A stretch of 64,000 bases of DNA from an uncultured virus (IMG/VR IMGVR_UViG_3300037189_026208) (lineage: Duplodnaviria; Heunggongvirae; Uroviricota; Caudoviricetes). This document shows, in pieces, positions 4,392 to 60,048 of the stretch (the first letter of the stretch is position 1; the number at the start of each line of letters is the position of its first letter). The DNA lies in IMG/VR virus record IMGVR_UViG_3300037189_026208, positions 1-64,000 of that record; one strand, written 5' to 3'. The notes under the pieces are model-generated. The model ran no database searches. It had not been told where the DNA came from and saw only the letters and a program-made list of their open reading frames with translations. Position numbers and translations under genes: made by a program.

Positions 4392-4964
4392 TTAAACTAC
4401 TACACCACCGGGAAGACCGGGTGTTGTATTACCTGCAAGGGAAACAGGGCGTAGCTGCCAATACTGATATGCAAGGGTAGCTGTTACTGTTTGAATTGTA
4501 CCTGTGTCACCGATGTTGTAAGCCATTTCACCGATATTCTGTACATATGCACCTACAAGGTTGTAAACACGGATACCGTTATTTTGCTTATCAAGTAGCT
4601 CTAATGTAATGACGGAATCAGGTCCAGGGGTATTGTAGTTACCTGTGCTTGTACTTTCGTCAAACGTATTTAGAGTTACCTGCTCAAGTACACCACGAAT
4701 ATCGTAGTTAGCATCACTTCGGAATGTAACATTCCAAGCAGCAGAATTAGGGTATGAAGCAGTACCGGGTACGTTAAACTGAAGTCCCATGAAAGGAACC
4801 TGTACGTTGTTAATTGTACGGCCTGGTAGAGCAGCTGACTCAACATAAACGAGAGCGTTTTCGTTGAATTGTGTGTTAGCTAAGGTATGTACACGAAATT
4901 GGAATTTACGTGCAAAGTCTTTAGCTGTTGCTACTCTATAGAAATCGGAGATGTTTTGGCTCAT
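4392..4964 (-). CDS. gp19: Tail tube protein
   Basis: FARKFQFRV, SAALPG, VPFMG, WNVTF, TLAYQYW; directly downstream of the sheath gene. Confidence 0.9.
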   Translation of the reverse strand: MSQNISDFYRVATAKDFARKFQFRVHTLANTQFNENALVYVESAALPGRTINNVQVPFMGLQFNVPGTASYPNSAAWNVTFRSDANYDIRGVLEQVTLNTFDESTSTGNYNTPGPDSVITLELLDKQNNGIRVYNLVGAYVQNIGEMAYNIGDTGTIQTVTATLAYQYWQLRPVSLAGNTTPGLPGGVVV

Positions 4965-4982
4965 ATGTTTAAATTATTTATA

Positions 4983-7370
4983 TTAGATTAACTCAGAGAA
5001 GTTTTGACCTGTTCTAGTTGCGATAAAGTTAACTAAGATAAATTCTGCAGCCTTGACGGGCTTGAGGTAAATATCTACTGCTAACTCGTTACGATCGATA
5101 ACGTCAGGTGTATTGTTTCTGGTATCGCAAACAATTAGGTAATCATAAAGACCCTGTGTGTTCTTTGCTAAGTTAAAGATTGGCGAGATTGTATTTATAA
5201 CACGTGTACGTGTGTAATCTGTATTAGGTTCAAATACGAAGTACTTGATTGTATTTTGTACAGCACGTTCAAGTGTTAAGAATAGACGTCTTACGTTTAC
5301 ACGGTCAAACGCTGAGGGCTTAGCCTGCTGTGTCTTCTGACCGTATACAACATAACCTCCACTACTAAAGTAAGCGATTGGGTTAACAGAGATTAGATAG
5401 AGGTAATCTCTTTGCTTCTGGTTCGGATTAACAGCAATGTCTGTTACCCCTGTAAGTATACCGCGATTTAGACCAGCTGGCGCAAACCAAGGCTGTGTCG
5501 CAGCGTCACTTCTGGAGTAGATTGCACTTACGAACCCAGATGCTGGTAACCATGCGAAGGTATCAGAATAGGAATCGTAAGATTTTAACCAGTTACCGTA
5601 AACGGCGGAGTAATTACTATCAGCTCTGCTAATTGCAGCTTGTAGAGGGGTATATACATTCTGTGTAAATGTATTACCTTTGATAGATAATACCTTAGTG
5701 TCCTTACCTGTTACGAAGATCTGACGTAGAGGATCAGCAATAAACATACAATCCTTACGAGTCTGTTCACAGAAGTCGTTAAACAGTCCCCAGAGAGCTA
5801 ACCATCTTTGTGTATATTGATCCTCACCTGTGTACCCGAAGTCTGAAATGTACTTAGTGTCATCAAAGTCTTGTGCAGTATCAAATGTTGTAGTATGTTG
5901 ACCTGTTGCTGTATTAGCAAAAATGGTACTAAGACCAGCATCAGCAATAAGATCTACTTTAATATCTTCTGGTGAGTTAATTAAACGTAATGCGTTGTTT
6001 ACCTTAGTATAAACATTACCAATGTGCTTATTATCTTGATTTAGATAACTAGGTAGATACACACCAACAGGGTATACAGCGTTCGTATTTGCTTGTAATT
6101 GAACATTACCTTTTGTAATATCAGTTTGTGTACCCCATAGATTTGTACGTGCAAATGCTGGATTTACATGTAATGTGATATTTGCAGAGCTACCATCGAT
6201 AATATCTTGTAGATAGAAGGATCTTAGGTTACCGCCCTTGGAATCAGCTATCTTACGGTTTTGGTTGAAAGACCCTACATAGGTTTCAACAGGGGAGATA
6301 ACTAGCTGAGAAGGATCGTAGATAGAGCTACGTACCTTGAAAAGATTAATAGTTACGCAATCGTTGTAACCTGCTTGACTAAAGTCAAAGCTAAAAGCAC
6401 GCTCAATTTGCTGTGATACACTCTGCGAGCCAGGTGAAAGTTGACCTGCAGATAACTCAAAACCTAAAGAACCACCTTGACTCTTTGGTAATACAGGAGC
6501 AAAAGCATCTGCACCTGTTAGTGTATTAAAAGATGTAACAGCAACGAAATCGCTATTAGGACCAAACTGAGTATTATCTGTTACAGTTAGATAATAACCT
6601 TGGAACTGTTCGTCAATTGTAGTCTGGCTATTATTGAGAACGATGAACCCTGCATTAGCTACATTTGTTGTAGATGACCAACTTGCTGTTGCTGGAGCAA
6701 ATGTCTGAGTTGTTGATAAAGTTGTTGAAGTAACAGATTTATTGAATGTAAAGGTATATGTACCGCTTAATGCGCCTACGTTGAACACTTCTGTGAATGA
6801 TTCAGGAACAATATTTGCAGCTAATTGAACAGCAGTTATTGCTCCGATTGTGGACATCGCAGCTGATGTTGGAACTGTTACTGATGAAACAGAATAACCT
6901 GTTGTTGTAGTTACTGTTGTAACAGGTGCTTGACCGTTGTTAAATCCGCTCCAATTAACATTACCGTTAAGAATATCAGTATGTTCTTTTTCAGTTAATG
7001 TAACGTGTGTAGGTGTACCAATTGTAAAGGAACCGTTGGCAGAAGCTACAGGGAAGAATAAAGCACTATATGTTGAAGCAGCAAAACCGTAACCGCTACC
7101 AGAACCATAAGGAAGACGGGTTGTTAATAGGTTACCTGGTGAATTTAAAACTTGCTTACAGGAATAATAGAAATAACGCTCAGCAGGTGTAGTTGGGGTA
7201 CCGAAAATAGTATCTAAATCGGCAGCTGTTGTAACCTGAATGACTTCGTCAGTAGGTCCTTGAGGAGCAAAACCGGCTATAAATGTAGTTGTACCGTTTA
7301 CAATGTTTTGATAATTAGATAAATCTGTTTCAATTATCTGTACACCAGGTGAGTTAATAGTTAGTGCCAT
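4983..7370 (-). CDS. gp18: Contractile tail sheath protein
   Basis: SPGVQIIETDLS start; PWFAPAGLNRG, GQKT, SAFDRVNVRRLF, FEPN, IYLKPVKAAEFI. Confidence 0.97.
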   Translation of the reverse strand: MALTINSPGVQIIETDLSNYQNIVNGTTTFIAGFAPQGPTDEVIQVTTAADLDTIFGTPTTPAERYFYYSCKQVLNSPGNLLTTRLPYGSGSGYGFAASTYSALFFPVASANGSFTIGTPTHVTLTEKEHTDILNGNVNWSGFNNGQAPVTTVTTTTGYSVSSVTVPTSAAMSTIGAITAVQLAANIVPESFTEVFNVGALSGTYTFTFNKSVTSTTLSTTQTFAPATASWSSTTNVANAGFIVLNNSQTTIDEQFQGYYLTVTDNTQFGPNSDFVAVTSFNTLTGADAFAPVLPKSQGGSLGFELSAGQLSPGSQSVSQQIERAFSFDFSQAGYNDCVTINLFKVRSSIYDPSQLVISPVETYVGSFNQNRKIADSKGGNLRSFYLQDIIDGSSANITLHVNPAFARTNLWGTQTDITKGNVQLQANTNAVYPVGVYLPSYLNQDNKHIGNVYTKVNNALRLINSPEDIKVDLIADAGLSTIFANTATGQHTTTFDTAQDFDDTKYISDFGYTGEDQYTQRWLALWGLFNDFCEQTRKDCMFIADPLRQIFVTGKDTKVLSIKGNTFTQNVYTPLQAAISRADSNYSAVYGNWLKSYDSYSDTFAWLPASGFVSAIYSRSDAATQPWFAPAGLNRGILTGVTDIAVNPNQKQRDYLYLISVNPIAYFSSGGYVVYGQKTQQAKPSAFDRVNVRRLFLTLERAVQNTIKYFVFEPNTDYTRTRVINTISPIFNLAKNTQGLYDYLIVCDTRNNTPDVIDRNELAVDIYLKPVKAAEFILVNFIATRTGQNFSELI

Positions 7371-7416
7371 AAAATTATATTGTTGTAATAATATTTATGC
7401 TAGACCTGGATATTTT

Positions 7417-8031
7417 TTACGGTTGGGCTATCTCAGGATTTAAAATATTTATTTCAAATTCACTGTATTGAAACGAAACAGATGAATTTAATAAGGTAGC
7501 GTCTTGATAACTATAGTTTATACTACCTAAAGTTGTAATAAAAGCATTGTGGTATATAAATTGTATCGCTTTTTGGTTGTATTCGTTTAAGCCGTAGATA
7601 GTTAGATTAGTCTGGTACTCAGTTAACGTACCGTTTTTAAGCGCATTAGCATTAATATTCGGCGGAATATCAAATAAATTACCTCCATAGATACTTTCAT
7701 CGAAAGTATTTAAAACATTTAACCATAACCACATTGTGTAATAGTTTGCGTATGCGTTATCTACAATAAAATTAACTGCGAGAGGTGCATATTGTGGTCG
7801 AGCATGACTCGAAACATTATAATTTTGGCCTGAGTATGGTATTGTTACAGCAGGTACATTAATATCCGGTACAACAGCTCCGAATACACTAATCTCCAGA
7901 GGTTCGATAGATAGATTTTTTGCTTTAAACTGTTTTTTTAAAATACTGGGTAGATCTAGTACTAGTAAAAATTTATCTTTACTAGATCTATTTAAAACAG
8001 ATTGCTGTGTTGGATTTGATGTATATTGCAT
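7417..8031 (-). CDS. Tail completion / tube terminator protein, gp3-like
   Basis: Tube-fold patterns (VPDINVP, LAVNFIVD..YANYYTMWLW, AFITTLGSINY, SFQYSEF). Confidence 0.65.
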   Translation of the reverse strand: MQYTSNPTQQSVLNRSSKDKFLLVLDLPSILKKQFKAKNLSIEPLEISVFGAVVPDINVPAVTIPYSGQNYNVSSHARPQYAPLAVNFIVDNAYANYYTMWLWLNVLNTFDESIYGGNLFDIPPNINANALKNGTLTEYQTNLTIYGLNEYNQKAIQFIYHNAFITTLGSINYSYQDATLLNSSVSFQYSEFEINILNPEIAQP

Positions 8032-8034
8032 TTA

Positions 8035-9768
8035 CTAAAAAGGCTTCCAACCATCTGCTAATAATGACTCAAAACTATGATCATCTAAATAGTATGAATC
8101 ATCATCAGAAATTAACGGTTTGTAGCCATTAGTATTTATATCAGATAATGATGCACTTAACCTTGATGTTATATCTCTTAAAATATAGAGATCAGGATCG
8201 GGATCATAGTATTGCCCGTAGCTTAATTCAGATGGTTTATTTTGTTCATCAAAATTATTAACTGTAAAATACTGCTGACAGATATCTGGTTCTAGAATAA
8301 AAAGAGCCCAAACAAGAGACATTACACGGTCATCAAAAAATTTATCACTTTGTTTTCTATACGTTCCGTTTGGATATCTAATAAACGTTTCTAGTTCTTT
8401 AATTGTATCGACATCGTTTATCTTTACAACCTGTAGAAAGTTTAACCAGTATCTCATATTTGATACTGCTGCAAATCTTAGATTATTATGACTTAGTACA
8501 CCGAGATGCCTAGTTGTACCAGCTGAGCCTGTATTTGAAAGCTTAGAGTAACTTACGATTTTTTCATATTGTAAGTTATTGTATAGTGCATCTATTACCT
8601 GAGCACCACAGTTATTACGTTCAATAAGGAGCGGTGGTCTTCCCCAAGAATCTGATAAGTTAAAAAGCTTATTAGCAAAATGATACGGCTCAACAATATT
8701 TGTACTGTAAACCGCAACCTGTTTTATGTTTGTAAGATCAGTAACATCCAGTATTTGTGCAACGGAAGCAGCACGACCTATACCCTCACCTACGTCAACA
8801 CCTACAACGTATAGCTTTGTTGGATCTGGTAGCTCAAATACTTTATACGCACCTGACTCGCAATCCCATATTACAGGTTTTTTTGTTTCTTTGTATTGTT
8901 CAATTACTGAAGCACCTACTGCAGAGTTTGCAGCGTCTAAGAATGTATTACCAAACTCTTGTTGAAAAGCTTCTTCAGAACCTAAAGCAGAAATCATCTG
9001 CTTCTTCCATTTCTCACCTCGACCTGGTACATCCCACCAGTCAATTCTTTCAGCATGCCAACCGTTTGTGCCTTTTTCAGCTTCAGAATAAATTTCATAA
9101 AACTTATTACCTGTACCGTTAGGGGTACTAACCATAAAGATCTTAGTTGTTTTACCTGATGAAATAATAGGTATAACAGACTTCCAAAACTCTTCCATGA
9201 AGTTTTGATCAATAAATGCAGCTTCGTCAATACAGAGAATGTTAGCAGTATCACCTCTTGCTGCTGTAGATGTTGTAGTACTGATACCGATACTCGAACC
9301 ATTATCAAATGTTACACCTGTCTTACCGTACTCTTTAACACCGGGTTTAAGATAGTTTGGTAATAACTCGTAAGCGAGACGTATTTTTTTAAAAATATTA
9401 ATTGCTGTTGACTCTTTGTTAGCAACAATCATTACTCTTTTATCAGGCTGAAAGCAAGTATTCCACAACGCGTAAATAGTAGTAATAGTTGTTTTACCAA
9501 CCTGTCTGGAAGCTAGTACACAAACAAAACGATTATCTGCGAGACTCTTAAGAGCTTTTTTCTGTGCTTTGTAAAGCTCAATTTTTTGTTTACCACGATC
9601 AGCTTCTACTATATAGAAATGATTTTCAGCAAAATGAATTATGTTTTCAGAGCACTTCTTAATCTCTCTGATCATTGTCGGTGTAAATTCAAACACCGCA
9701 TTTTCTTTTGGTATGTTTTTATCTCCGCGATAAAATTGACTTTCGTCTATTGGATCTCCTTCTGTCAT
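8035..9768 (-). CDS. gp17: Terminase large subunit
   Basis: SRQVGKTT Walker A, CIDEAAF Walker B, VSTPNG motif III, VGVDVGEG nuclease motif, DDRVMSL. Confidence 0.97.
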   Translation of the reverse strand: MTEGDPIDESQFYRGDKNIPKENAVFEFTPTMIREIKKCSENIIHFAENHFYIVEADRGKQKIELYKAQKKALKSLADNRFVCVLASRQVGKTTITTIYALWNTCFQPDKRVMIVANKESTAINIFKKIRLAYELLPNYLKPGVKEYGKTGVTFDNGSSIGISTTTSTAARGDTANILCIDEAAFIDQNFMEEFWKSVIPIISSGKTTKIFMVSTPNGTGNKFYEIYSEAEKGTNGWHAERIDWWDVPGRGEKWKKQMISALGSEEAFQQEFGNTFLDAANSAVGASVIEQYKETKKPVIWDCESGAYKVFELPDPTKLYVVGVDVGEGIGRAASVAQILDVTDLTNIKQVAVYSTNIVEPYHFANKLFNLSDSWGRPPLLIERNNCGAQVIDALYNNLQYEKIVSYSKLSNTGSAGTTRHLGVLSHNNLRFAAVSNMRYWLNFLQVVKINDVDTIKELETFIRYPNGTYRKQSDKFFDDRVMSLVWALFILEPDICQQYFTVNNFDEQNKPSELSYGQYYDPDPDLYILRDITSRLSASLSDINTNGYKPLISDDDSYYLDDHSFESLLADGWKPF

Positions 9769-51545: not shown

Positions 51546-51761
51546 TTATTTGTTCTTGTTATACTCGTTTTGAGCTTTGATTTGCTTACTCTTACGAACT
51601 TTGATTTTTTCTTTAGCTTTCTTTTTTTGGTTAGGTGTGAGAAAATTACGGTGTAACCTTACTTCATCAAGAATACCTTCTCGGTCAATCTTTGTCTTAA
51701 GCTTCTTAAGTGCGCGTTCTAGGCCATTCGGCTCTCTGTTGTTTACGTATACTTGTACCAT
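51546..51761 (-). CDS. rpsU: Ribosomal protein bS21
   Basis: VQVYV...LERALKKLK.K..REGIL.EVR..R.F..P..KKK. Confidence 0.88.
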   Translation of the reverse strand: MVQVYVNNREPNGLERALKKLKTKIDREGILDEVRLHRNFLTPNQKKKAKEKIKVRKSKQIKAQNEYNKNK

Positions 51762-53003: not shown

Positions 53004-53399
53004 TTATATACCTTTTGCAGCAGCGTGGTAACGAGCTCTCTTAGCAACGTCACAAATAGCACTAGAAGCTACAGCAATCTTTTGTAACATCCAGGGCTCA
53101 ATACTCTCACCAGAAGAGAGAATATCATGAAGCTCTTTAGCGTTTGTAAAGAGATCAAAAAGGTTTGTCTTGGCCATTTCTAATTCCTCGCTTTCATGCT
53201 CTTCCGGAGACTCTTCACATTCACAACCTTCTTCTTCAGGTTCTTCACCTAAATCCATAACAATTACACCAGCATCCTTGCCTTCATCATCCGTTACTTC
53301 AACAGGTGTTGTATCATGCTCAATATCTGTAGGTTCATTATGATCTTTTTGTCTTGAGGAAATATAAGCCTCAGCAATTAAGCGAAATTCCTTGTCCAT
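53004..53399 (-). CDS. Acidic late protein, probable internal head protein
   Basis: MDKEFRLIAEAY leader; EMAK..L......EL...L.....IEPWMLQKIAVA domain resembling T4-like phage virion proteins. Confidence 0.7.
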   Translation of the reverse strand: MDKEFRLIAEAYISSRQKDHNEPTDIEHDTTPVEVTDDEGKDAGVIVMDLGEEPEEEGCECEESPEEHESEELEMAKTNLFDLFTNAKELHDILSSGESIEPWMLQKIAVASSAICDVAKRARYHAAAKGI

Positions 53400-53400
53400 A

Positions 53401-53766
53401 TTAAGCTACGCTTCCGTCCTCTGGACAATTTCCTGTCTCGTGATCTCCGCCACAAGTCGTACAGACCTTAGCGGTTACTTTATCATCTTCGCCGGCTGTA
53501 CCAGCAACTTCTTCTTTTTCTTTCTTTGTAAGAAGAGCGTCAAGATCAGCGATGGTCTTACCGTGGTCGTTAACAATCTTAACAATATCTTCTTTTTCGT
53601 CCTTAAGCTTTAGATAGTCCTTAGAACCGTGCTCAGCTTTAAGTAAGGAACGAACTACTTTGTAGTAACGTCTTGCAAGCTTTTTGTTAACAACTTTATC
53701 AGTAGCTGTACCTTCGAGGATGCGCTGATAAGCTTCCGCTAATAATACTTCATCTTTATTGATCAT
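53401..53766 (-). CDS. Late protein with leader and a C-terminal zinc knuckle
   Basis: MINKDEVLLAEAYQRILE; CTTCGGDHETGNC. Confidence 0.7.
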   Translation of the reverse strand: MINKDEVLLAEAYQRILEGTATDKVVNKKLARRYYKVVRSLLKAEHGSKDYLKLKDEKEDIVKIVNDHGKTIADLDALLTKKEKEEVAGTAGEDDKVTAKVCTTCGGDHETGNCPEDGSVA

Positions 53767-53775
53767 ATATTATAT

Positions 53776-53997
53776 TTAATCTTTCCTATGGGACTTCTTC
53801 CACCATTTGCACCAGGCACTAGGCTTAATGTCCCCGCTAACAGCAGAACATTTATTTGGTGATCTCCACATTGTACATTGATCACATCGCTGTCCCTTAA
53901 CAGTGTGAGCTACATAACCCGCTTCTGCTTTAGAGTGTTTTGCTTTAGCTTCACTTAACATCTCTAAAGCTAATTTTATAACTTTATCGAAGCTCAT
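53776..53997 (-). CDS. High-potential iron-sulfur protein (HiPIP)-like
   Basis: SKAEAGY....KGQRCDQC..W..PNKCSAVSG.I.PSAWC..W matches the HiPIP four-Cys pattern. Confidence 0.85.
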   Translation of the reverse strand: MSFDKVIKLALEMLSEAKAKHSKAEAGYVAHTVKGQRCDQCTMWRSPNKCSAVSGDIKPSAWCKWWKKSHRKD

Positions 53998-54428
53998 CCG
54001 CCTTGCTGTGCTGCCTTCATATATGAATGAAGTTGTTCGATATCCTTAGGTATAGCTTTTTTAATAACTTCAGGAATTGGTTTACTTAATAACAATAATG
54101 ATTGTGCGTAATCTTTAGCTGTATCTCTATCTTTTGAAATAGCTATAATTTCGTGTGTAGTAAGTTGAGCACCATTTATATATTTACGATACGCTCTTTC
54201 AGCGTCATAACGTGTATTATCTTCTTTTGGTGTGTGAGGTTTGGCAACTTCTTCTGTTTCACCTGGACCTCTAGGGTTAGGCTCTTCAGGGTTTCCAGCA
54301 GGTCTAGCTTTAGCAGGATGTGCTAAACCTAATGAAGCAGCCATGGCTGCAGTTGCCATAGCTTTTGAAAAAGGTCCTTCTTGAACCAATTCATATGCTT
54401 CTGTTATTTTTTGTATATCTTTACTCAT
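53994..54428 (-). CDS. Late protein with leader followed by a signal-peptide-like stretch
   Basis: MSKDIQKITEAYELVQE then GPFSKAMATAAMAASLGLAHPAKA. Confidence 0.7.
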   Translation of the reverse strand: MSKDIQKITEAYELVQEGPFSKAMATAAMAASLGLAHPAKARPAGNPEEPNPRGPGETEEVAKPHTPKEDNTRYDAERAYRKYINGAQLTTHEIIAISKDRDTAKDYAQSLLLLSKPIPEVIKKAIPKDIEQLHSYMKAAQQGG

Positions 54429-54429
54429 A

Positions 54430-54684
54430 TTAATCTTTATTTACTACGCTGTCAAAACCTGCACTCCAGAGATCAGCAGCTTTTTTATTACCGCCTTTAT
54501 GAGGATTTTCAGGCATAACACCATCTCTGAGATATCTTCTTCCAGCTAAAGCGCCATGGGCAAAATGATCAGATGCATCTGAGGCTGCGTGATAATCAGT
54601 AGGAGTTCTTGACATAAGTTTTTCGTATTCTTGTCTACTAATAGTATCGTATGCTTCGTTTAAAGCGGTTTCGAATTTCGACAT
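54430..54684 (-). CDS. Late protein with leader and a ribosome modulation factor-like motif
   Basis: MSKFETALNEAY; G..AG........NP........W..GF. Confidence 0.6.
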   Translation of the reverse strand: MSKFETALNEAYDTISRQEYEKLMSRTPTDYHAASDASDHFAHGALAGRRYLRDGVMPENPHKGGNKKAADLWSAGFDSVVNKD

Positions 54685-54803: not shown

Positions 54804-55025
54804 CTAAGTACGCTCTATGTTTTTGTAACGTACCCCTCTGCGTTTCCTTAGTAAAGGCTCCGGACTTGAGACCGGCTTAGTAGCATTAATACGATGTTTT
54901 AATCTACACATGAATCTATATACAGTATCCGGATCAGGCAAGCAAAGAAATAAAAATATTATTAATGGAAACCCCATAAAAACCGCTATACCTTCCAGAT
55001 ACTGTAAAATAGCACTCACTAGCAA
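54804..55025 (-). CDS. Small membrane protein
   Basis: N-terminal hydrophobic segment and basic tail; start uncertain. Confidence 0.5.
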   Translation of the reverse strand: MLVSAILQYLEGIAVFMGFPLIIFLFLCLPDPDTVYRFMCRLKHRINATKPVSSPEPLLRKRRGVRYKNIERT

Positions 55026-55034
55026 ATAACGATT

Positions 55035-56000
55035 TTACGTTATAGCATCAATTAATCCACCGAAATTTTCTTCGGTCTCCGGATCAATTATACCTTTTAG
55101 TAAATCAGATTCTATTGGATAAAGATCATTATACTCGACTACATATTTTTCACTTTTATCTTTAGCAAAATCAGGCTCAACAAGAGCTTGTCGTACGCGA
55201 TGTCTTGCCCAAGGACTCATTTCCACAGCTGGTTTAATGTATGTAGCAAGTTCACCTTTCCATAAATTATCTCTATCACTTCTTAAACAAACTCTATCTC
55301 CCTCTTTAAGGTTGTTTCTCCATGTTTCTAAATCAAAATCCTTACTCTCTGTAACACTTAGTAAATCACTAAATGAATCTTTAGTATCTTTTGTTAATGA
55401 CTTTCTTAATTCCCAATCAATAGGAAATAATTTACTTAGATTGTATCTAGTATAGCCTTGAGAGCCATCTATATTGTGACCTTCTTTAACAAGTAAAGCA
55501 ATATCTCTAAAACTATCAACTACTTCTAAATATGTAGCTTTAAATCCACGGACAGTAAAAGGTCTAACTTCTACCTTATCGCCTTTCTTTAAGTTACTTC
55601 GCCAAGTTCTAAGATATTCGTAATCCTCTTGAGTCTCTTCTGATACTATATCGATTAAATCGCTAAATGAATTTTCTGTATCCTTAGATAGAGAGTTCTT
55701 TAATTCATATTTTTTTAAAGCTTTTTGTACTTTATCGGTTACAACCTTTCTAACTGTATAGTAACTATCAGGTACATGTAAGCTTCTATACCATTCATCA
55801 AAATCTTTCATATGAACAAACCAACCATTACCTGATTTAGCATCTCTAGTCCATATAGCAGGTTTTCCGTCTATAATAATATCCCAACAAGGATTCCACA
55901 TCTGACCTCCCATTAAGGTTTCAAAAGGACCCTTAACAATCTCTACTTTAAGATCATTAGCTCTTCTTAATTCCTCTAATATAAGATCATTAAATCTCAC
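55035..56000 (-). CDS. Three-module member of the repeat-tailed gene family
   Basis: MRFNDLILEE leader; three copies of the family motif (ELKNSLSKDTENSFSDLIDIV, ELRKSLTKDTKDSFSDLLSV, LLKGIIDPETEENFGGLIDAI); modules 2 and 3 look SH3/KOW-like (LKKGDKV, LKEGDRV). Confidence 0.85.
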   Translation of the reverse strand: MRFNDLILEELRRANDLKVEIVKGPFETLMGGQMWNPCWDIIIDGKPAIWTRDAKSGNGWFVHMKDFDEWYRSLHVPDSYYTVRKVVTDKVQKALKKYELKNSLSKDTENSFSDLIDIVSEETQEDYEYLRTWRSNLKKGDKVEVRPFTVRGFKATYLEVVDSFRDIALLVKEGHNIDGSQGYTRYNLSKLFPIDWELRKSLTKDTKDSFSDLLSVTESKDFDLETWRNNLKEGDRVCLRSDRDNLWKGELATYIKPAVEMSPWARHRVRQALVEPDFAKDKSEKYVVEYNDLYPIESDLLKGIIDPETEENFGGLIDAIT

Positions 56001-56139
56001 GGTTTATTATTTATCAATATCTGCTCTAGCGCGGCGAGGTTTCTCCTAATTTCCCCGCTTAGTGCATCCGTCTCGGCCCCAAAGTTTTTGAAAATATTTT
56101 ATACTCTAAATTGAATTCCGATTATTAATTCTAGGGAAA

Positions 56140-56424
56140 TTAAAGAATATCTAATAGATCTCCGAACGTCTCGCCTGTCTCCTTGGACAGATGCCGCTTT
56201 ATATTATGATCTTCTATAGCTTTGGCAATAGCGTTCTTTACTCCTTGCTTCTTATAGAGTTCAAGTCCCCAAACAGTGAGGTATTGGTTAGTCTCCAAAT
56301 ATCTAAAACCATCTGGCTCCTCGCCTATTGTTAACTTCTGGCCATCTACCTCCACGTCATAGCCTATATAGCCTTCGTCCTTAAGGTCGTAAGGACCTCT
56401 TAAGAATTTTACTTTATAAGACAT
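56140..56424 (-). CDS. Repeat-tailed family member 10
   Basis: Ends AIEDHNIKRHLSKETGETFGDLLDIL. Confidence 0.85.
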   Translation of the reverse strand: MSYKVKFLRGPYDLKDEGYIGYDVEVDGQKLTIGEEPDGFRYLETNQYLTVWGLELYKKQGVKNAIAKAIEDHNIKRHLSKETGETFGDLLDIL

Positions 56425-56767
56425 CTAAGAACCCTCCGAATGAATCTCTTGTTTCTGGAGACATAGCTTGAAGTGTCTCCCAATTCTTAATAGCTTTAGC
56501 TACCGGACCGTTTTCAGTATCTTTTCCATCCCAAAGGTAAATCTCTGGCATATAAAGAACATAAGGGTATTCACCACGTTCTGGAGTATAAATGACAAAA
56601 CTATTTCGATCTTCCGTATCCTCTTTAATATGCATTAACCAGGCACCTTCTATATCTTCGGGAAGTGTATAGCCTCGCTTTAGATACTCATTGATCTCTT
56701 CATCGGTAGCCCTTCTTAGGACTTTATAGAAGTTACCAGACTCTAGAAAGAACTTGTTAAAGGACAT
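56414..56767 (-). CDS. Repeat-tailed family member 9
   Basis: MSFNKFFLES...AMSPETRDSFGGFLDVL. Confidence 0.85.
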   Translation of the reverse strand: MSFNKFFLESGNFYKVLRRATDEEINEYLKRGYTLPEDIEGAWLMHIKEDTEDRNSFVIYTPERGEYPYVLYMPEIYLWDGKDTENGPVAKAIKNWETLQAMSPETRDSFGGFLDVL

Positions 56768-57131
56768 CTAATAAACCTCCAAATGAATCTTTAGTTTCTT
56801 TGTCTACACTATTTAAAAGATTATAATCTTCTATAGCCTTGTCTATTTGTTCTCTAAACGGATCATCATAGACGTCGGTATGATTGGGGATAATCTTAGG
56901 ATAGGGAGGTAGCCAATGCCCTCTATAATGACCTGGTGGCCAGCAGTAATAGCATATGCACTCCTTGTCCTTATACTTCATTTGTAGCTTATAGACATTC
57001 TCTTCCCAATCTTTTATATCCAGCTCATTACGAAAGAGATGGGTCATTGGTCCCTCAAGTATCTTTACTTCAATTCCTCTATTATCACCGTAATTGATAA
57101 GAGCTTCTTTTATTAATCGATCAAAGTACAT
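56757..57131 (-). CDS. Repeat-tailed family member 8
   Basis: MYFDRLIKEAL...SVDKETKDSFGGLLDVL. Confidence 0.85.
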   Translation of the reverse strand: MYFDRLIKEALINYGDNRGIEVKILEGPMTHLFRNELDIKDWEENVYKLQMKYKDKECICYYCWPPGHYRGHWLPPYPKIIPNHTDVYDDPFREQIDKAIEDYNLLNSVDKETKDSFGGLLDVL

Positions 57132-57537
57132 CTAATAATCCTCCAAATGAATCTCTTGTATCTTTACTTAATCCTTGCTTAAAATTCCATTGATCTATAA
57201 GAGCTGGAACTGTTTCACGTAACATCTTATTAAGGAATTGAGCTCTCGGGGCTGACTTGTGTTGTCTACCGACCATACGTTTAAACCAAGTAGGTGTTTG
57301 AATAACAGTATAATAAGCTGTTGTCTTCTGAAGCTCTCTATCTTTATCCTCTATCTTCTTAACCCACCAAGTACCTCCTTTACTATCCTTTAAACAAAAG
57401 ACCTCTTTATAGTCTTTATGTGGAGGTTGTTCAAGATGAAGCTCACCAGTAAGACTATCCATAAAGCCGGTACCTACAACCTTAAATGTTGTATTCATCC
57501 AGTCCAGTTCTTCTAATACTAATTGATTAAAGTACAT
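57121..57537 (-). CDS. Repeat-tailed family member 7
   Basis: MYFNQLVLEEL...GLSKDTRDSFGGLLDVL. Confidence 0.85.
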   Translation of the reverse strand: MYFNQLVLEELDWMNTTFKVVGTGFMDSLTGELHLEQPPHKDYKEVFCLKDSKGGTWWVKKIEDKDRELQKTTAYYTVIQTPTWFKRMVGRQHKSAPRAQFLNKMLRETVPALIDQWNFKQGLSKDTRDSFGGLLDVL

Positions 57538-57889
57538 CTAATAATCCTCCGAATGTTTTCTTTGTATCATTACTTAATAGCTTTCTAAACTCCCAATCAT
57601 TAATAGCATCAGGAACTAACCCGGAGAACCCCATAAAGGTTACATCTCCGCTATCATGAATGTTGTAGCTAGTATATCCTTCCTTCTCGTTATCTTTAAA
57701 CCGTACAACAAGACGCGGCCAATACCCAGGTCTATTACCATCATCGTCTACCACCCAGGCACCTTTTATATACTCTTCCCTTACCCAGCGATAGCCATAA
57801 CCGTATATCCTCTGAAGATCTTCTTCTGTAGCGTCCCGAACGACGTGATACTTCTCTAAAGCTTCTAATACTATTTGATTAAAGTACAT
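57527..57889 (-). CDS. Repeat-tailed family member 6
   Basis: MYFNQIVLEAL...LLSNDTKKTFGGLLDVL. Confidence 0.85.
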   Translation of the reverse strand: MYFNQIVLEALEKYHVVRDATEEDLQRIYGYGYRWVREEYIKGAWVVDDDGNRPGYWPRLVVRFKDNEKEGYTSYNIHDSGDVTFMGFSGLVPDAINDWEFRKLLSNDTKKTFGGLLDVL

Positions 57890-58220
57890 CTAATAATCCT
57901 CCGAAAGTTTCTCTTGTATCCTTTGATAAGGATTGTTTTAATTCCCAATCTTTCATAGCTTTAATAATAAGGCTATCAAGTGTATCAATATCAATACCGA
58001 ATAGCTTTTTACATTGATCTCGTTCATATACAGCATTATCCGGATCAATTCCTGAAGTATTTAAACCATCGAGATAAAGCATACATTGATCATCTTTGAC
58101 ATAACGAAAGAAACACTTCTTACCATTTACAGTTATATTATAATGAAGGTCTCCGATAGCCCAATCTGGAAGATCTTTGTCTTCTATAACATTAATAATC
58201 TTAATAGAAGGTTGTTTCAT
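57879..58220 (-). CDS. Repeat-tailed family member 5 (no leader)
   Basis: MKQPSIKII...WELKQSLSKDTRETFGGLLDVL. Confidence 0.85.
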   Translation of the reverse strand: MKQPSIKIINVIEDKDLPDWAIGDLHYNITVNGKKCFFRYVKDDQCMLYLDGLNTSGIDPDNAVYERDQCKKLFGIDIDTLDSLIIKAMKDWELKQSLSKDTRETFGGLLDVL

Positions 58221-58228
58221 ATAGGCTA

Positions 58229-58765
58229 TTAGAGGGCGTCTAGGAAGTCCTTAAATGATCCTTGAGTCTTAGTATCGGTTTGTCCTAGAGCTAAGAAGTT
58301 CTTTTCTTTATGTTTTATCCACCAGTTTACTAGCTTATCTAGCTTCTCGGCAAATGCGTAATGATAACCTTTCTGCCTCCATACTGGATCCTCTGTATTA
58401 TTATCATAATGAACGAAGTAACTTATATATGGATATAAAACATTCGGTACCCAAGAGGCAGCTGCAGCAATATGGGTAGGTCCTGTTTCATCTTCAAGTC
58501 TTCTAGTATCATCAATACAAGTCATATAATATGTCTTTGTATCTGTCCATGTAGCAAGCTCCCTAGTCTTATGTAATATACCATTAGGTTCAGCCTCCTT
58601 CGGTAGTCCTTCTTTAATGTCATATATCTCAAAGTTATGAAAGGGCATTGAATCAACCTCATCCGTTGACCAGACCGATCGTTCAAAGCCTTGCTTTCTA
58701 TCGGGGTTTCTTGATCGAGGTACATTAGCTACTAGAGCCTCTTTGAAGTAATCTTTAAATGACAT
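58229..58765 (-). CDS. Repeat-tailed family member 4 (divergent tail)
   Basis: MSFKDYFKEAL...TDTKTQGSFKDFLDAL. Confidence 0.82.
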   Translation of the reverse strand: MSFKDYFKEALVANVPRSRNPDRKQGFERSVWSTDEVDSMPFHNFEIYDIKEGLPKEAEPNGILHKTRELATWTDTKTYYMTCIDDTRRLEDETGPTHIAAAASWVPNVLYPYISYFVHYDNNTEDPVWRQKGYHYAFAEKLDKLVNWWIKHKEKNFLALGQTDTKTQGSFKDFLDAL

Positions 58766-59102
58766 CGATTAAACCTCCAAATGATTGTTCAGTATCCTTT
58801 GATAGATTGTTTTTTAATTCCCAAGATATAAGCTGTTTGTATATAGGAAAGTCCGGATAGATATACCCTTCAAAGCCATAATTAGGTAAGCTATACACCA
58901 TTAAGTTTTCATTGTTAAGATCTTCAAATAAGTCCTTACAACGTATGACTAGAACATCAGATACATCGGTATAGTTTCTAATTACCCATCCTCTAGTTAA
59001 TTTTAAATCCTCATCATATTGAGAAGATAAACCATCGAGTATTTTCTGAGGAGCTAATTCTATCTTCTCCTTCTTTGATTCGTAGAATAACTTAAATGAC
59101 AT
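58755..59102 (-). CDS. Repeat-tailed family member 3
   Basis: MSFKLFYES...WELKNNLSKDTEQSFGGLIDVI. Confidence 0.85.
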   Translation of the reverse strand: MSFKLFYESKKEKIELAPQKILDGLSSQYDEDLKLTRGWVIRNYTDVSDVLVIRCKDLFEDLNNENLMVYSLPNYGFEGYIYPDFPIYKQLISWELKNNLSKDTEQSFGGLIDVI

Positions 59103-59490
59103 CTAGTAGCCCTCCGAAAGTATCTCTTGTCTTATCTGGTAGATGCCTCCTTTGTTCAAAGTCATCTATAGCCTTAACTACTCTCCTACCTTCTTCTCTA
59201 TAGGCTGGTATATCCCGCTCGGTAAAGGCACCACATCTATCCATACCTTCTAAAGTATAAACATCATAACCTTTTACATACGTAATAGATCTTATAGCAA
59301 TATATCTAGCAATATATCTATCAGTTCCTGATTCCTTCTTTATAGTAAGAAGATAGAGAGGGTCATCTTTTCTCCAAGGATACTTCCTACGAAAGACCCC
59401 CTCATACCCCTCAGGCACTGCTTCTACAGTTATATTATCTCTTTGAAGCTTATAAGGCTCTTTAGATTCGTAGAATAACTTAAATGACAT
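59092..59490 (-). CDS. Repeat-tailed family member 2
   Basis: MSFKLFYES...HLPDKTRDTFGGLLDVI. Confidence 0.85.
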   Translation of the reverse strand: MSFKLFYESKEPYKLQRDNITVEAVPEGYEGVFRRKYPWRKDDPLYLLTIKKESGTDRYIARYIAIRSITYVKGYDVYTLEGMDRCGAFTERDIPAYREEGRRVVKAIDDFEQRRHLPDKTRDTFGGLLDVI

Positions 59491-59833
59491 CTAATAGACC
59501 TCCAAATGAATCTTTAGTATCGTCTGATAGATTATTTTTAAACTCCCATTTCTTAATAGCTTTAGCAAGAGGTGAGTTTATATCCTCATGACTAATAAGG
59601 TCAATAGTGTTAGGGTCTAATGTGTAAATTGAATATGTCTTCCAGTCAGGAATATATGCTACAATAACCTGTCCTTCATCATAGTCATCGTTCATATAAA
59701 CGATCCATGCCTGTTCAATATCTCCCTTCTCCGTATCAAGATCTCTTGTAAGATCTTTAAGTTCTTTCTTTGTAAATCTTCTAAGAACTTTGTATGAGTC
59801 GTTTGACTCTGTAAAAAATTGTTTAAATGACAT
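59480..59833 (-). CDS. Repeat-tailed family member 1
   Basis: MSFKQFFTES...WEFKNNLSDDTKDSFGGLLDVI. Confidence 0.85.
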   Translation of the reverse strand: MSFKQFFTESNDSYKVLRRFTKKELKDLTRDLDTEKGDIEQAWIVYMNDDYDEGQVIVAYIPDWKTYSIYTLDPNTIDLISHEDINSPLAKAIKKWEFKNNLSDDTKDSFGGLLDVI

Positions 59834-59853
59834 CTATCTATCTCCTTGATAGA

Positions 59854-60048
59854 TTATTTAAGAGTCTTTATTTCATTCCCTATCTCTACTATATACTCAC
59901 CTATCTTAGACATGCCGAGCTCCTTGGTTAGGCTCTGCTTCTCCCTTAGTATTCTAACGATAGTCTCTAGCTTACCTAGATAGTCTTCTAATGTAAGCCC
60001 GGATAGATCTTCCTTTAGATAGCCTGATACAATTTCATTAAACTTCAT
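59854..60048 (-). CDS. Small leader-bearing protein heading the array operon
   Basis: MKFNEIVSGYLKE leader; lacks the family tail. Confidence 0.65.
   Translation of the reverse strand: MKFNEIVSGYLKEDLSGLTLEDYLGKLETIVRILREKQSLTKELGMSKIGEYIVEIGNEIKTLK

Follow-up and report, generated by a model that had tools for sequence, protein, structure and literature searches.

Why should a row of small phage genes with dissimilar bodies share a single ending, and why should that ending also hold the start of the next gene? The question is raised by the uncultured caudoviricete IMGVR_UViG_3300037189_026208, a 74-kb virus contig whose first 64 kb (64,000 nucleotides) are hereafter called the window. Eleven genes at 55035-59833 on the minus strand form an array with 13 motif copies and a common 28-residue C-terminal tail, and the junction element that joins them is a direct coding repeat. 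We favor, at a probability of about one half, a reading in which the array is exchangeable, its repeated coding junction serves at once as protein tail, next start and crossover site, and the tail peptide is a predicted head-loading tag. The parts of this reading differ in strength and are weighed separately below.

The phage is a T4-like myophage. It encodes gp55 (late sigma factor), gp17 (terminase), gp18 (sheath), gp19 (tube) and gp43 (polymerase), together with UvsX, UvsY, UvsW and helicases. A 218.4-kb record, IMGVR_UViG_3300032285_004054, is 100% identical to the window over the compared stretches, and this larger copy adds the portal, head protease and major head protein expected of T4-type prohead machinery. 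Six more tail genes lie at genome positions 68208-71539, none of the six with Gly-Gly in the tail, and a second array of five genes occurs in locus L001 of the same phage.

Eight junctions of the window array have the same 11-nt overlap, with downstream starts at 59490, 59102, 58765, 57889, 57537, 57131, 56767 and 56424, as a preliminary description of this DNA had reported. In all eight, GGAGG lies 8 nt upstream of the ATG, which is itself contained in the Asp-Val codons of the tail, and the upstream stop falls inside the first codons of the next gene; these read MSFK (three) or MYFN (two), as first described, and also MYFD, MSFN and MSYK (one each). The overlap length is identical throughout, whereas the sequence varies: pairs of junctions share identical runs of at most 6 to 31 nt. 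The repeat extends beyond the roughly 40 nt originally delimited to about 85 nt, or 28 codons. Identical repeats of 29-31 bases occur within the window. Loss of Gly-Gly where no gene overlaps downstream is real for the four copies named at the time, with one counter-example in the window: the gene at 55035 ends FGGLIDAIT, spelled GGT GGA and without GGAGG.

Protein and pattern searches identified related arrays in five further phage groups, B to F (Table 1). Our counts leave out duplicates and strains (L024, L029, L035, L037, L038, L040 and L042-L045), as well as L033, L034 and L039, a weak copy at 70562 and two long tail proteins; L033, L034 and L039 had been considered as family loci and were rejected as chance pattern matches with no tail hits. 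The 85 counted copies comprise 48 with the 11-nt overlap, seven with a 4- or 1-nt overlap, 16 with a 7-12-nt gap, 12 terminal copies and two internal ones. GenBank phages gave no match, word-index protein searches returned P0002 and P0003 only, and the tail was present in one of 15 other loci anchored on a neighboring small cysteine-rich gene. Whole-record searches, in which most records were fragments, were positive for 0 of 5 records in one set and for 1 of 29 in another, this one being an assembly identical over the compared stretches; one complete 217-kb relative was without a match.

We asked whether the GGAGG word acts at the RNA level. Other starts in this phage genome are AT-rich, and the Shine-Dalgarno (SD)-like words GGAG, GAGG or AGGA occur 4-18 nt upstream of 11 of the 124 open reading frames (ORFs) on the 74-kb contig, nine of which are array genes; because such words are this rare, and precede the downstream gene in only one of 30 other overlapping or abutting pairs, the GGAGG of the array stands out. 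Across the counted set, an SD-like word is present at 38 of 48 overlap junctions compared with 12 of 37 other copies (Fisher p 2e-5; phage-stratified p 1.6e-5), and at 19/26 versus 9/28 when each phage-and-spelling combination is counted once (p 0.003). The preliminary description held that Gly-Gly is kept for an RNA-level signal. Selection on an SD-like word fits the data, but Gly-Gly is merely the spelling used by this phage, relatives having EE, GE, GD, ED, KE or KD (GG 11, GE 7, GD 7, EE 5, ED 5, KE 2 and KD 1 among the 38 overlaps). The synonymous comparison that had been suggested points the same way: Glu after Phe is GAG in 10 of 11 cases at overlaps and in 4 of 14 elsewhere (background 0.30-0.33; p 0.004), and Gly after Phe is GGA in 25/26 versus 7/11 (background 0.23-0.32; p 0.02), GGA making up 23% of Gly codons in the window phage. 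A degenerate, non-coding junction remnant in front of the first gene, also correctly described earlier, keeps AAGGAG at the equal 8-nt spacing. SD use at overlaps has been reported to exceed that at leading genes in some cases, with a varying contribution (PMC6728339). Judged from these sequence patterns, the SD-like word likely acts as an RNA signal that helps the next gene to start without being required for it. It probably helps ribosomes to re-initiate 11 nt behind the stop, a place at which the coding of the tail leaves no room for the AT-rich start context usual in this phage.

Several observations pull against an SD role. The other overlapping or abutting pairs of this phage manage almost entirely without such a word; 10 of 48 overlap junctions lack it, and the word is therefore not essential; phages C, D and E taken singly show no significant enrichment (6/11 versus 2/4, 6/8 versus 1/3 and 7/9 versus 2/5, respectively); and in L001 two junctions retain GGAGG, but 15 and 21 nt from the ATG. 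The junction copies are not independent, because they are homogenized by gene conversion, and the pattern used in the metagenome search favored purines at the codons of the SD word. A possible Bacteroidales host is a real caveat as well, because Bacteroidetes hardly use SD (PMC6728339): the window encodes seven tRNAs and bS21, the best bacterial matches of bS21 are Bacteroidales, weak ones at 34-49% over about 44 residues, and bS21-carrying phages have been linked to Bacteroidetes hosts (PMC9723584). The bS21 gene (51546-51761, minus strand) adjoins the tRNA cluster, in a genome that is nearly SD-free except for the array.

These points lend some substance to an account in which the purine-rich word is a by-product of acidic and Gly residues and of block-wise gene conversion, with starts made through coupling or AT-rich context alone. 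Almost nil SD use in the genome, the 10 overlaps without the word, the 12 non-overlap copies with it and the weak Bacteroidales hint would all be expected. The synonymous bias and the seven spellings would not, and neither would AAGGAG at 8-nt spacing in a remnant that is non-coding nor AAGGAG before hsp20 in the same phage (L049, 12701-13186). We regard this account as unlikely. Strong SD sites also stand before a few genes of SD-poor phages in L013, L019, L021 and L025, near 5000-7250 (AAGGAGGTGA).

The junctions without overlap carry a different signal. Of the 16 gap junctions, 15 have TAAATA or TAAGTA at the stop codon and 13 use GAC, which removes the overlapping ATG; among 27 non-overlap copies, Asp is written GAC in 21 (background 0.15-0.21). 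Together, the stop-codon word and GAC indicate that the family has two junction modes. Of 60 long non-array genes, 14 have TAAATA, the core of the T4 late promoter, no more than 25 nt away, compared with 4.7 in shuffles, and the word also precedes the array and its last gene. The preliminary description had portrayed each gene as a self-expressing cassette. This does not hold for a gene behind an overlap junction, because such a gene has no promoter word of its own.

The junction had also been proposed as the place where genes are gained, lost or swapped, and here one clean indel, scrambled gene order and phage-specific tails are in its favor, with the qualification that the indel falls in a non-overlap junction bearing the late-promoter word. 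L041 holds one gene more than L032 and L035. It aligns to L032 as two blocks, 92-517 and 822-1207, which have positions 3310-3363 of L032, a single junction, in common; the additional DNA spans precisely one gene, both indel ends lie inside the repeat, and the single junction of L032 is a chimera of the two in L041. A whole-gene indel with its crossover in the element was thus seen once, in relatives. Gene order is scrambled: cross-phage pairs whose bodies share 55% identity or more number 28, and in the 24 of these that have a next gene on both sides, that gene was never the orthologue. Tails, by comparison, follow the phage and not the body. The 42-nt tail was nearer to the median of its own phage than to the tail of its orthologue in 37 of 46 comparisons (in 50 of 51 the best own-phage tail was ahead of that of the orthologue; choosing the maximum biases this test), the nearest tail came from the same phage in 66 of 80 cases versus 36 of 80 for the 42 nt upstream, and body DNA identity exceeded tail identity in 8 of 8 close pairs. 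Gene 3 of the window is an example, with a phage D counterpart 80% identical in the body and just 55% identical in tail DNA. From these comparisons, it is well supported that genes are gained, lost and exchanged at the junction repeat. T4 recombines at 6-10 bp (10.1101/2022.04.14.488369) and at lengths below 50 bp (PMC2839356), and T4-type homologous recombination, for which UvsX, UvsY and UvsW are encoded, very probably acts on these 30-85-nt repeats.

The case for exchange is weakened by the fact that only one clean indel was found, and that flanking non-array genes are shuffled too: of 21 pairs, 7 retain the next gene, with three duplicates among them, and all seven are pairs between phages B and E, where the four array pairs do not retain it. 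Strain differences are enriched in junctions between L032 and L035 (33/719 versus 96/4733) but depleted between L005 and L038 (4/134 versus 70/853). The junction-to-junction deletions anticipated for the sample were absent from assembled contigs of three runs, contigs being a form of data that drops rare variants. One joint of X1 type was present, on a 17.8-kb contig that matches at two junction repeats only and is probably the second array of the phage, and the assembly breaks at the 57524-57904 repeat. No exact whole-gene tandem copies were found in any array.

What, then, is the peptide for? That the rest of the tail is kept for protein function agrees with the persistence of its Phe and Leu/Ile positions while third codon positions are free. 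The bodies are diverse, falling into 33 groups with one of 357 between-group profile comparisons above probability 90, and none could be assigned to a known family or fold: a search of the 11 window genes and 22 other array proteins against Pfam and PHROGs yielded nothing that passed curated cut-offs or E 0.001, and fold searches with two models (genes 7 and 9) gave no E <0.001 in BFVD, a best PDB Z of 5.7 and no close cluster in the Atlas. In both models, the N-terminus is disordered and is followed by a beta-sheet body, one helix and then a last helix of low confidence. Outside arrays, the tail ends a 662-residue protein and a 322-residue nucleotidase. The former (L049, 4946-6934, minus strand) contains repeats and has both leader and tail; in the latter (L049, 16179-17147, minus strand), the nucleotidase runs on into a leader-like stretch inside the protein, then a body and then the tail, as would result from fusion to an array gene.

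Across phages, the most common tail end is K-T-F-x-[DE]-L-I-D-E-L, and T4 internal proteins (IPs) IPII and IPIII begin MKTYQEFIAE, a leader in which targeting depends on residues 4 and 7 and processing on residues 8 and 10 (PMC9026906). Against the T4 IPIII leader, the B-E tails had a median score of 22, compared with 17 for the 99.9th background percentile, and 1 of 5000 shuffles reached it. N-terminal leaders resembling such a capsid-targeting sequence (CTS), by a pattern that misses T4 IPI itself, were present in 9 of 11 array genes versus 5 of 113 other ORFs, two of the five being tail genes. A tail profile run over 35,436 nine-mers from 190 ORFs scored highest, outside the family, on residues 9-17 of the predicted core scaffold, whose gene is flanked by those for the head protease and major head protein; the hit outranks three true tail copies, and its register is the same in 56 of 58 aligned scaffold sequences. 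We put at even odds the proposal that the last helix of the tail is a CTS-like signal copying the N-terminal helix of the core scaffold, and that the products are late-made internal proteins. Head loading by the tail, which we likewise hold to be as probable as its opposite, goes beyond the preliminary description, in which no peptide role was proposed.

Other evidence is less favorable to head loading. The tails of the window phage show no match to the T4 leader, with a median of 2 that 361 of 5000 shuffles reach; the likeness to a CTS was noticed post hoc, spans nine residues and follows a common amphipathic pattern; leaders occur in just 16 of 59 B-E genes, and thus are not family-wide (12 of 21 in the window phage; p 0.02); and the scaffold is named by position only, with no family hit. 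The array proteins have net charges of -16 to +5, mostly negative, and weaken the internal-protein analogy because T-even internal proteins are described as basic (PMC9026906).

The tail could instead be a helix that docks inside the cell onto a partner encoded by host or phage, such as the replisome, polymerase, ribosome or a chaperone, which would leave the DNA and RNA roles of the junction unchanged. A free, amphipathic and acidic last helix in the models is what such a role would predict, a tail on a nucleotidase would be unsurprising, and the window phage's tails, with no final Glu and no match to the T4 leader, would need no excuse. We nevertheless find docking improbable enough to rank below head loading, as it would not account for the late-promoter word on the stop codon of 15/16 gap junctions, for the CTS-like leaders on most array genes or for a best non-family match at the N-terminus of the predicted scaffold. 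Less probable still is that all members are old, tandemly duplicated paralogues of one fold with the tail as its best-conserved structural part: both models show the order beta-sheet, helix, helix, and four window genes belong to one group, but the body groups hardly recognize one another in profile comparisons, the tail also ends unrelated long proteins, and the last helix is not confidently packed. Least probable is that the tail is kept mainly as DNA or RNA, a recombination handle and start signal whose peptide is a tolerated by-product of gene conversion, for although tails are phage-specific and converted and the residues after Phe vary with SD-like spellings, Phe and Leu/Ile persist despite free third codon positions, and the peptide is kept in internal copies and in isolated long proteins with no downstream start.

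Under the head-loading reading, the junction repeat would end each protein in the 28-residue tail and supply the start of the next gene, in this phage by GGAGG and an overlapping ATG. T4-type homologous recombination would act on the 30-85-nt repeats, at which genes would be gained, lost and homogenized, and, by way of the tail peptide, the proteins would dock to the core of the prohead and be injected as cargo. More tentatively, and with odds that we place somewhat against it, one junction may give any ORF inserted between two of its copies a C-terminal head-loading tag modeled on the assembly helix of the core scaffold, a late expression signal (an SD-coupled overlap or a stop-codon promoter, interchangeable through a GAT/GAC change and a few bases) and a crossover site at once, so that some 20 injected proteins could be reshuffled integrase-free (the 218-kb genome was not searched for an integrase).

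Table 1. The array of the window, its junction repeats and the arrays of related phages.
Feature	Position	Strand	Details
Array of 11 genes, 28-residue tail in 13 copies	55035..59833	-	sequence
Degenerate junction remnant	59823..59861	-	TAAATA on upstream gene's stop 59855-59860; AAGGAG 59842-59847; ATG 59833
Gene 1, 117 aa, body family f4, CTS-like leader	59480..59833	-	body 77% identical to P0002, whose ends differ
Junction repeat 1	59480..59564	-	tail, GGAGG, ATG at 59490, stop
Gene 2, 132 aa, body without relative in set	59092..59490	-	junction repeat 59092-59176
Gene 3, 115 aa, f4	58755..59102	-	junction repeat 58755-58839
Gene 4, 178 aa, degenerate tail, no overlap	58229..58765	-	8-nt gap to next start
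Gene 5, 113 aa, f7, without CTS-like leader	57879..58220	-	junction repeat 57879-57963
Gene 6, 120 aa, remote f2/f4 relative	57527..57889	-	junction repeat 57527-57611, shares 31 identical nt with previous junction
Gene 7, 138 aa, f1	57121..57537	-	junction repeat 57121-57205; model: beta-sheet body, long helix, low-confidence tail helix
Gene 8, 124 aa, f3	56757..57131	-	junction repeat 56757-56841
Gene 9, 117 aa, f4	56414..56767	-	junction repeat 56414-56498; model: residues 1-10 disordered, beta-alpha-beta4 body, helix, low-confidence tail helix
Gene 10, 94 aa, f8, last in overlapping chain	56140..56424	-	tail without Gly-Gly
Gene 11, 321 aa, three tail copies (two internal)	55035..56000	-	TAAATA 56008-56013 in front
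Arrays in group B			L005 (3 genes), L032 (16 genes)
Array in group C			L036 (15 genes)
Array in group D			L046 (11 genes)
Array in group E			L047 (14 genes)
Array in group F			L041 (3 genes); close to B

Several neighboring features are worth recording. Genes 10 and 11 are separated by a 139-nt non-coding gap (56001-56139, minus strand) with predicted hairpins and no Rfam match at gathering score; no Rfam families were found in the array, and no shared RNA structure was found at the junctions. Just downstream of the last array gene (54830-54892, minus strand) lies a type-P1 twister ribozyme match (E 2.5e-6, 35.8 bits), which is below the Rfam gathering score of 67.2. Small tail-less genes at 53004-54684 (minus strand) have the leader-like starts MDKEFRLIAE, MINKDEVLLAE, MSKDIQKITE and MSKFETALNE, and similar starts are found behind the array in L005; these may be a second class of head cargo. 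A 73-residue protein with four cysteines (53776-53997, minus strand) has a weak HiPIP match (E 8e-4) and is conserved in 16 viral loci. In L020, a distant relative, prepilin-type, autotransporter-repeat and PEP-CTERM-like genes at 4787-8641 (minus strand) possibly hint at the host group of that phage.

How does the array compare with known systems? T-even IP loci are, like the array, variable loci of small unrelated proteins with a common short tag (PMC9026906, PMC3012670, PMC9958956, PMC2839356); their flanking repeats have been proposed as shuffling agents, T4-type head machinery is present in both, and T4 leaders and the relatives' tails have in common an aromatic-x-x-hydrophobic-hydrophobic-x-Glu pattern. 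They differ in that the array's universal tag is C-terminal and 28 residues long, its proteins are mostly acidic and not basic, its packaging is predicted, and its repeat is coding and overlaps the next gene, whereas in T-even phages the elements lie between genes and are based on early promoters. The PeSL cassettes of RB49 and phi1 (PMC2839356) likewise place a repeated element between ORFans, where it brings expression signals and marks whole-gene crossovers. The array, by contrast, lacks an intergenic stem-loop with a sigma70-like promoter; its element is protein-coding, leaves no intergenic DNA at overlap junctions and 7-12 nt at gap junctions, and offers either an SD word with overlap or a late-promoter word on the stop codon. 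Termination-reinitiation gene pairs (PMC6728339) also have an SD-like word in the upstream gene before an overlapping start, with a variable need for it, and also in genomes that seldom use SD for other starts; here, the overlap measures 11 nt, where 4 or 1 is usual, and occurs in only a single gene family of the phage, and the coupling is putative. In T4, amplification and deletion at microhomologies (10.1101/2022.04.14.488369) similarly alter gene content through short repeats, but the repeats of the array are dedicated ones of 30-85 nt, in register with gene ends. By analogy, the array would work like T-even IP loci and PeSL cassettes (PMC2839356, PMC3012670, PMC9958956, PMC9024508) but belongs to neither, because what its genes have in common is protein-coding, lies at the C-terminus and runs into the next gene. 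In literature searches, outside of which most subscription papers fell, neither this family nor a capsid-targeting sequence at the C-terminus was found to have been described.

If the favored reading is true, large phages build exchangeable payloads out of one multi-use sequence. The roughly 30 uncharacterized body types would then be candidate counter-defense or host-takeover proteins, and a loading tag at the C-terminus could be put to use in packaging proteins into heads. The mechanism of CTS localization in T4 has been called mysterious (PMC9958956); a tag that mimics the conserved N-terminal helix of the scaffold would offer a handle on the CTS binding partner in the T4 core. Even without packaging, the array offers a clear example from nature of gene ends that evolve in concert and preserve an SD-like signal through amino-acid change.

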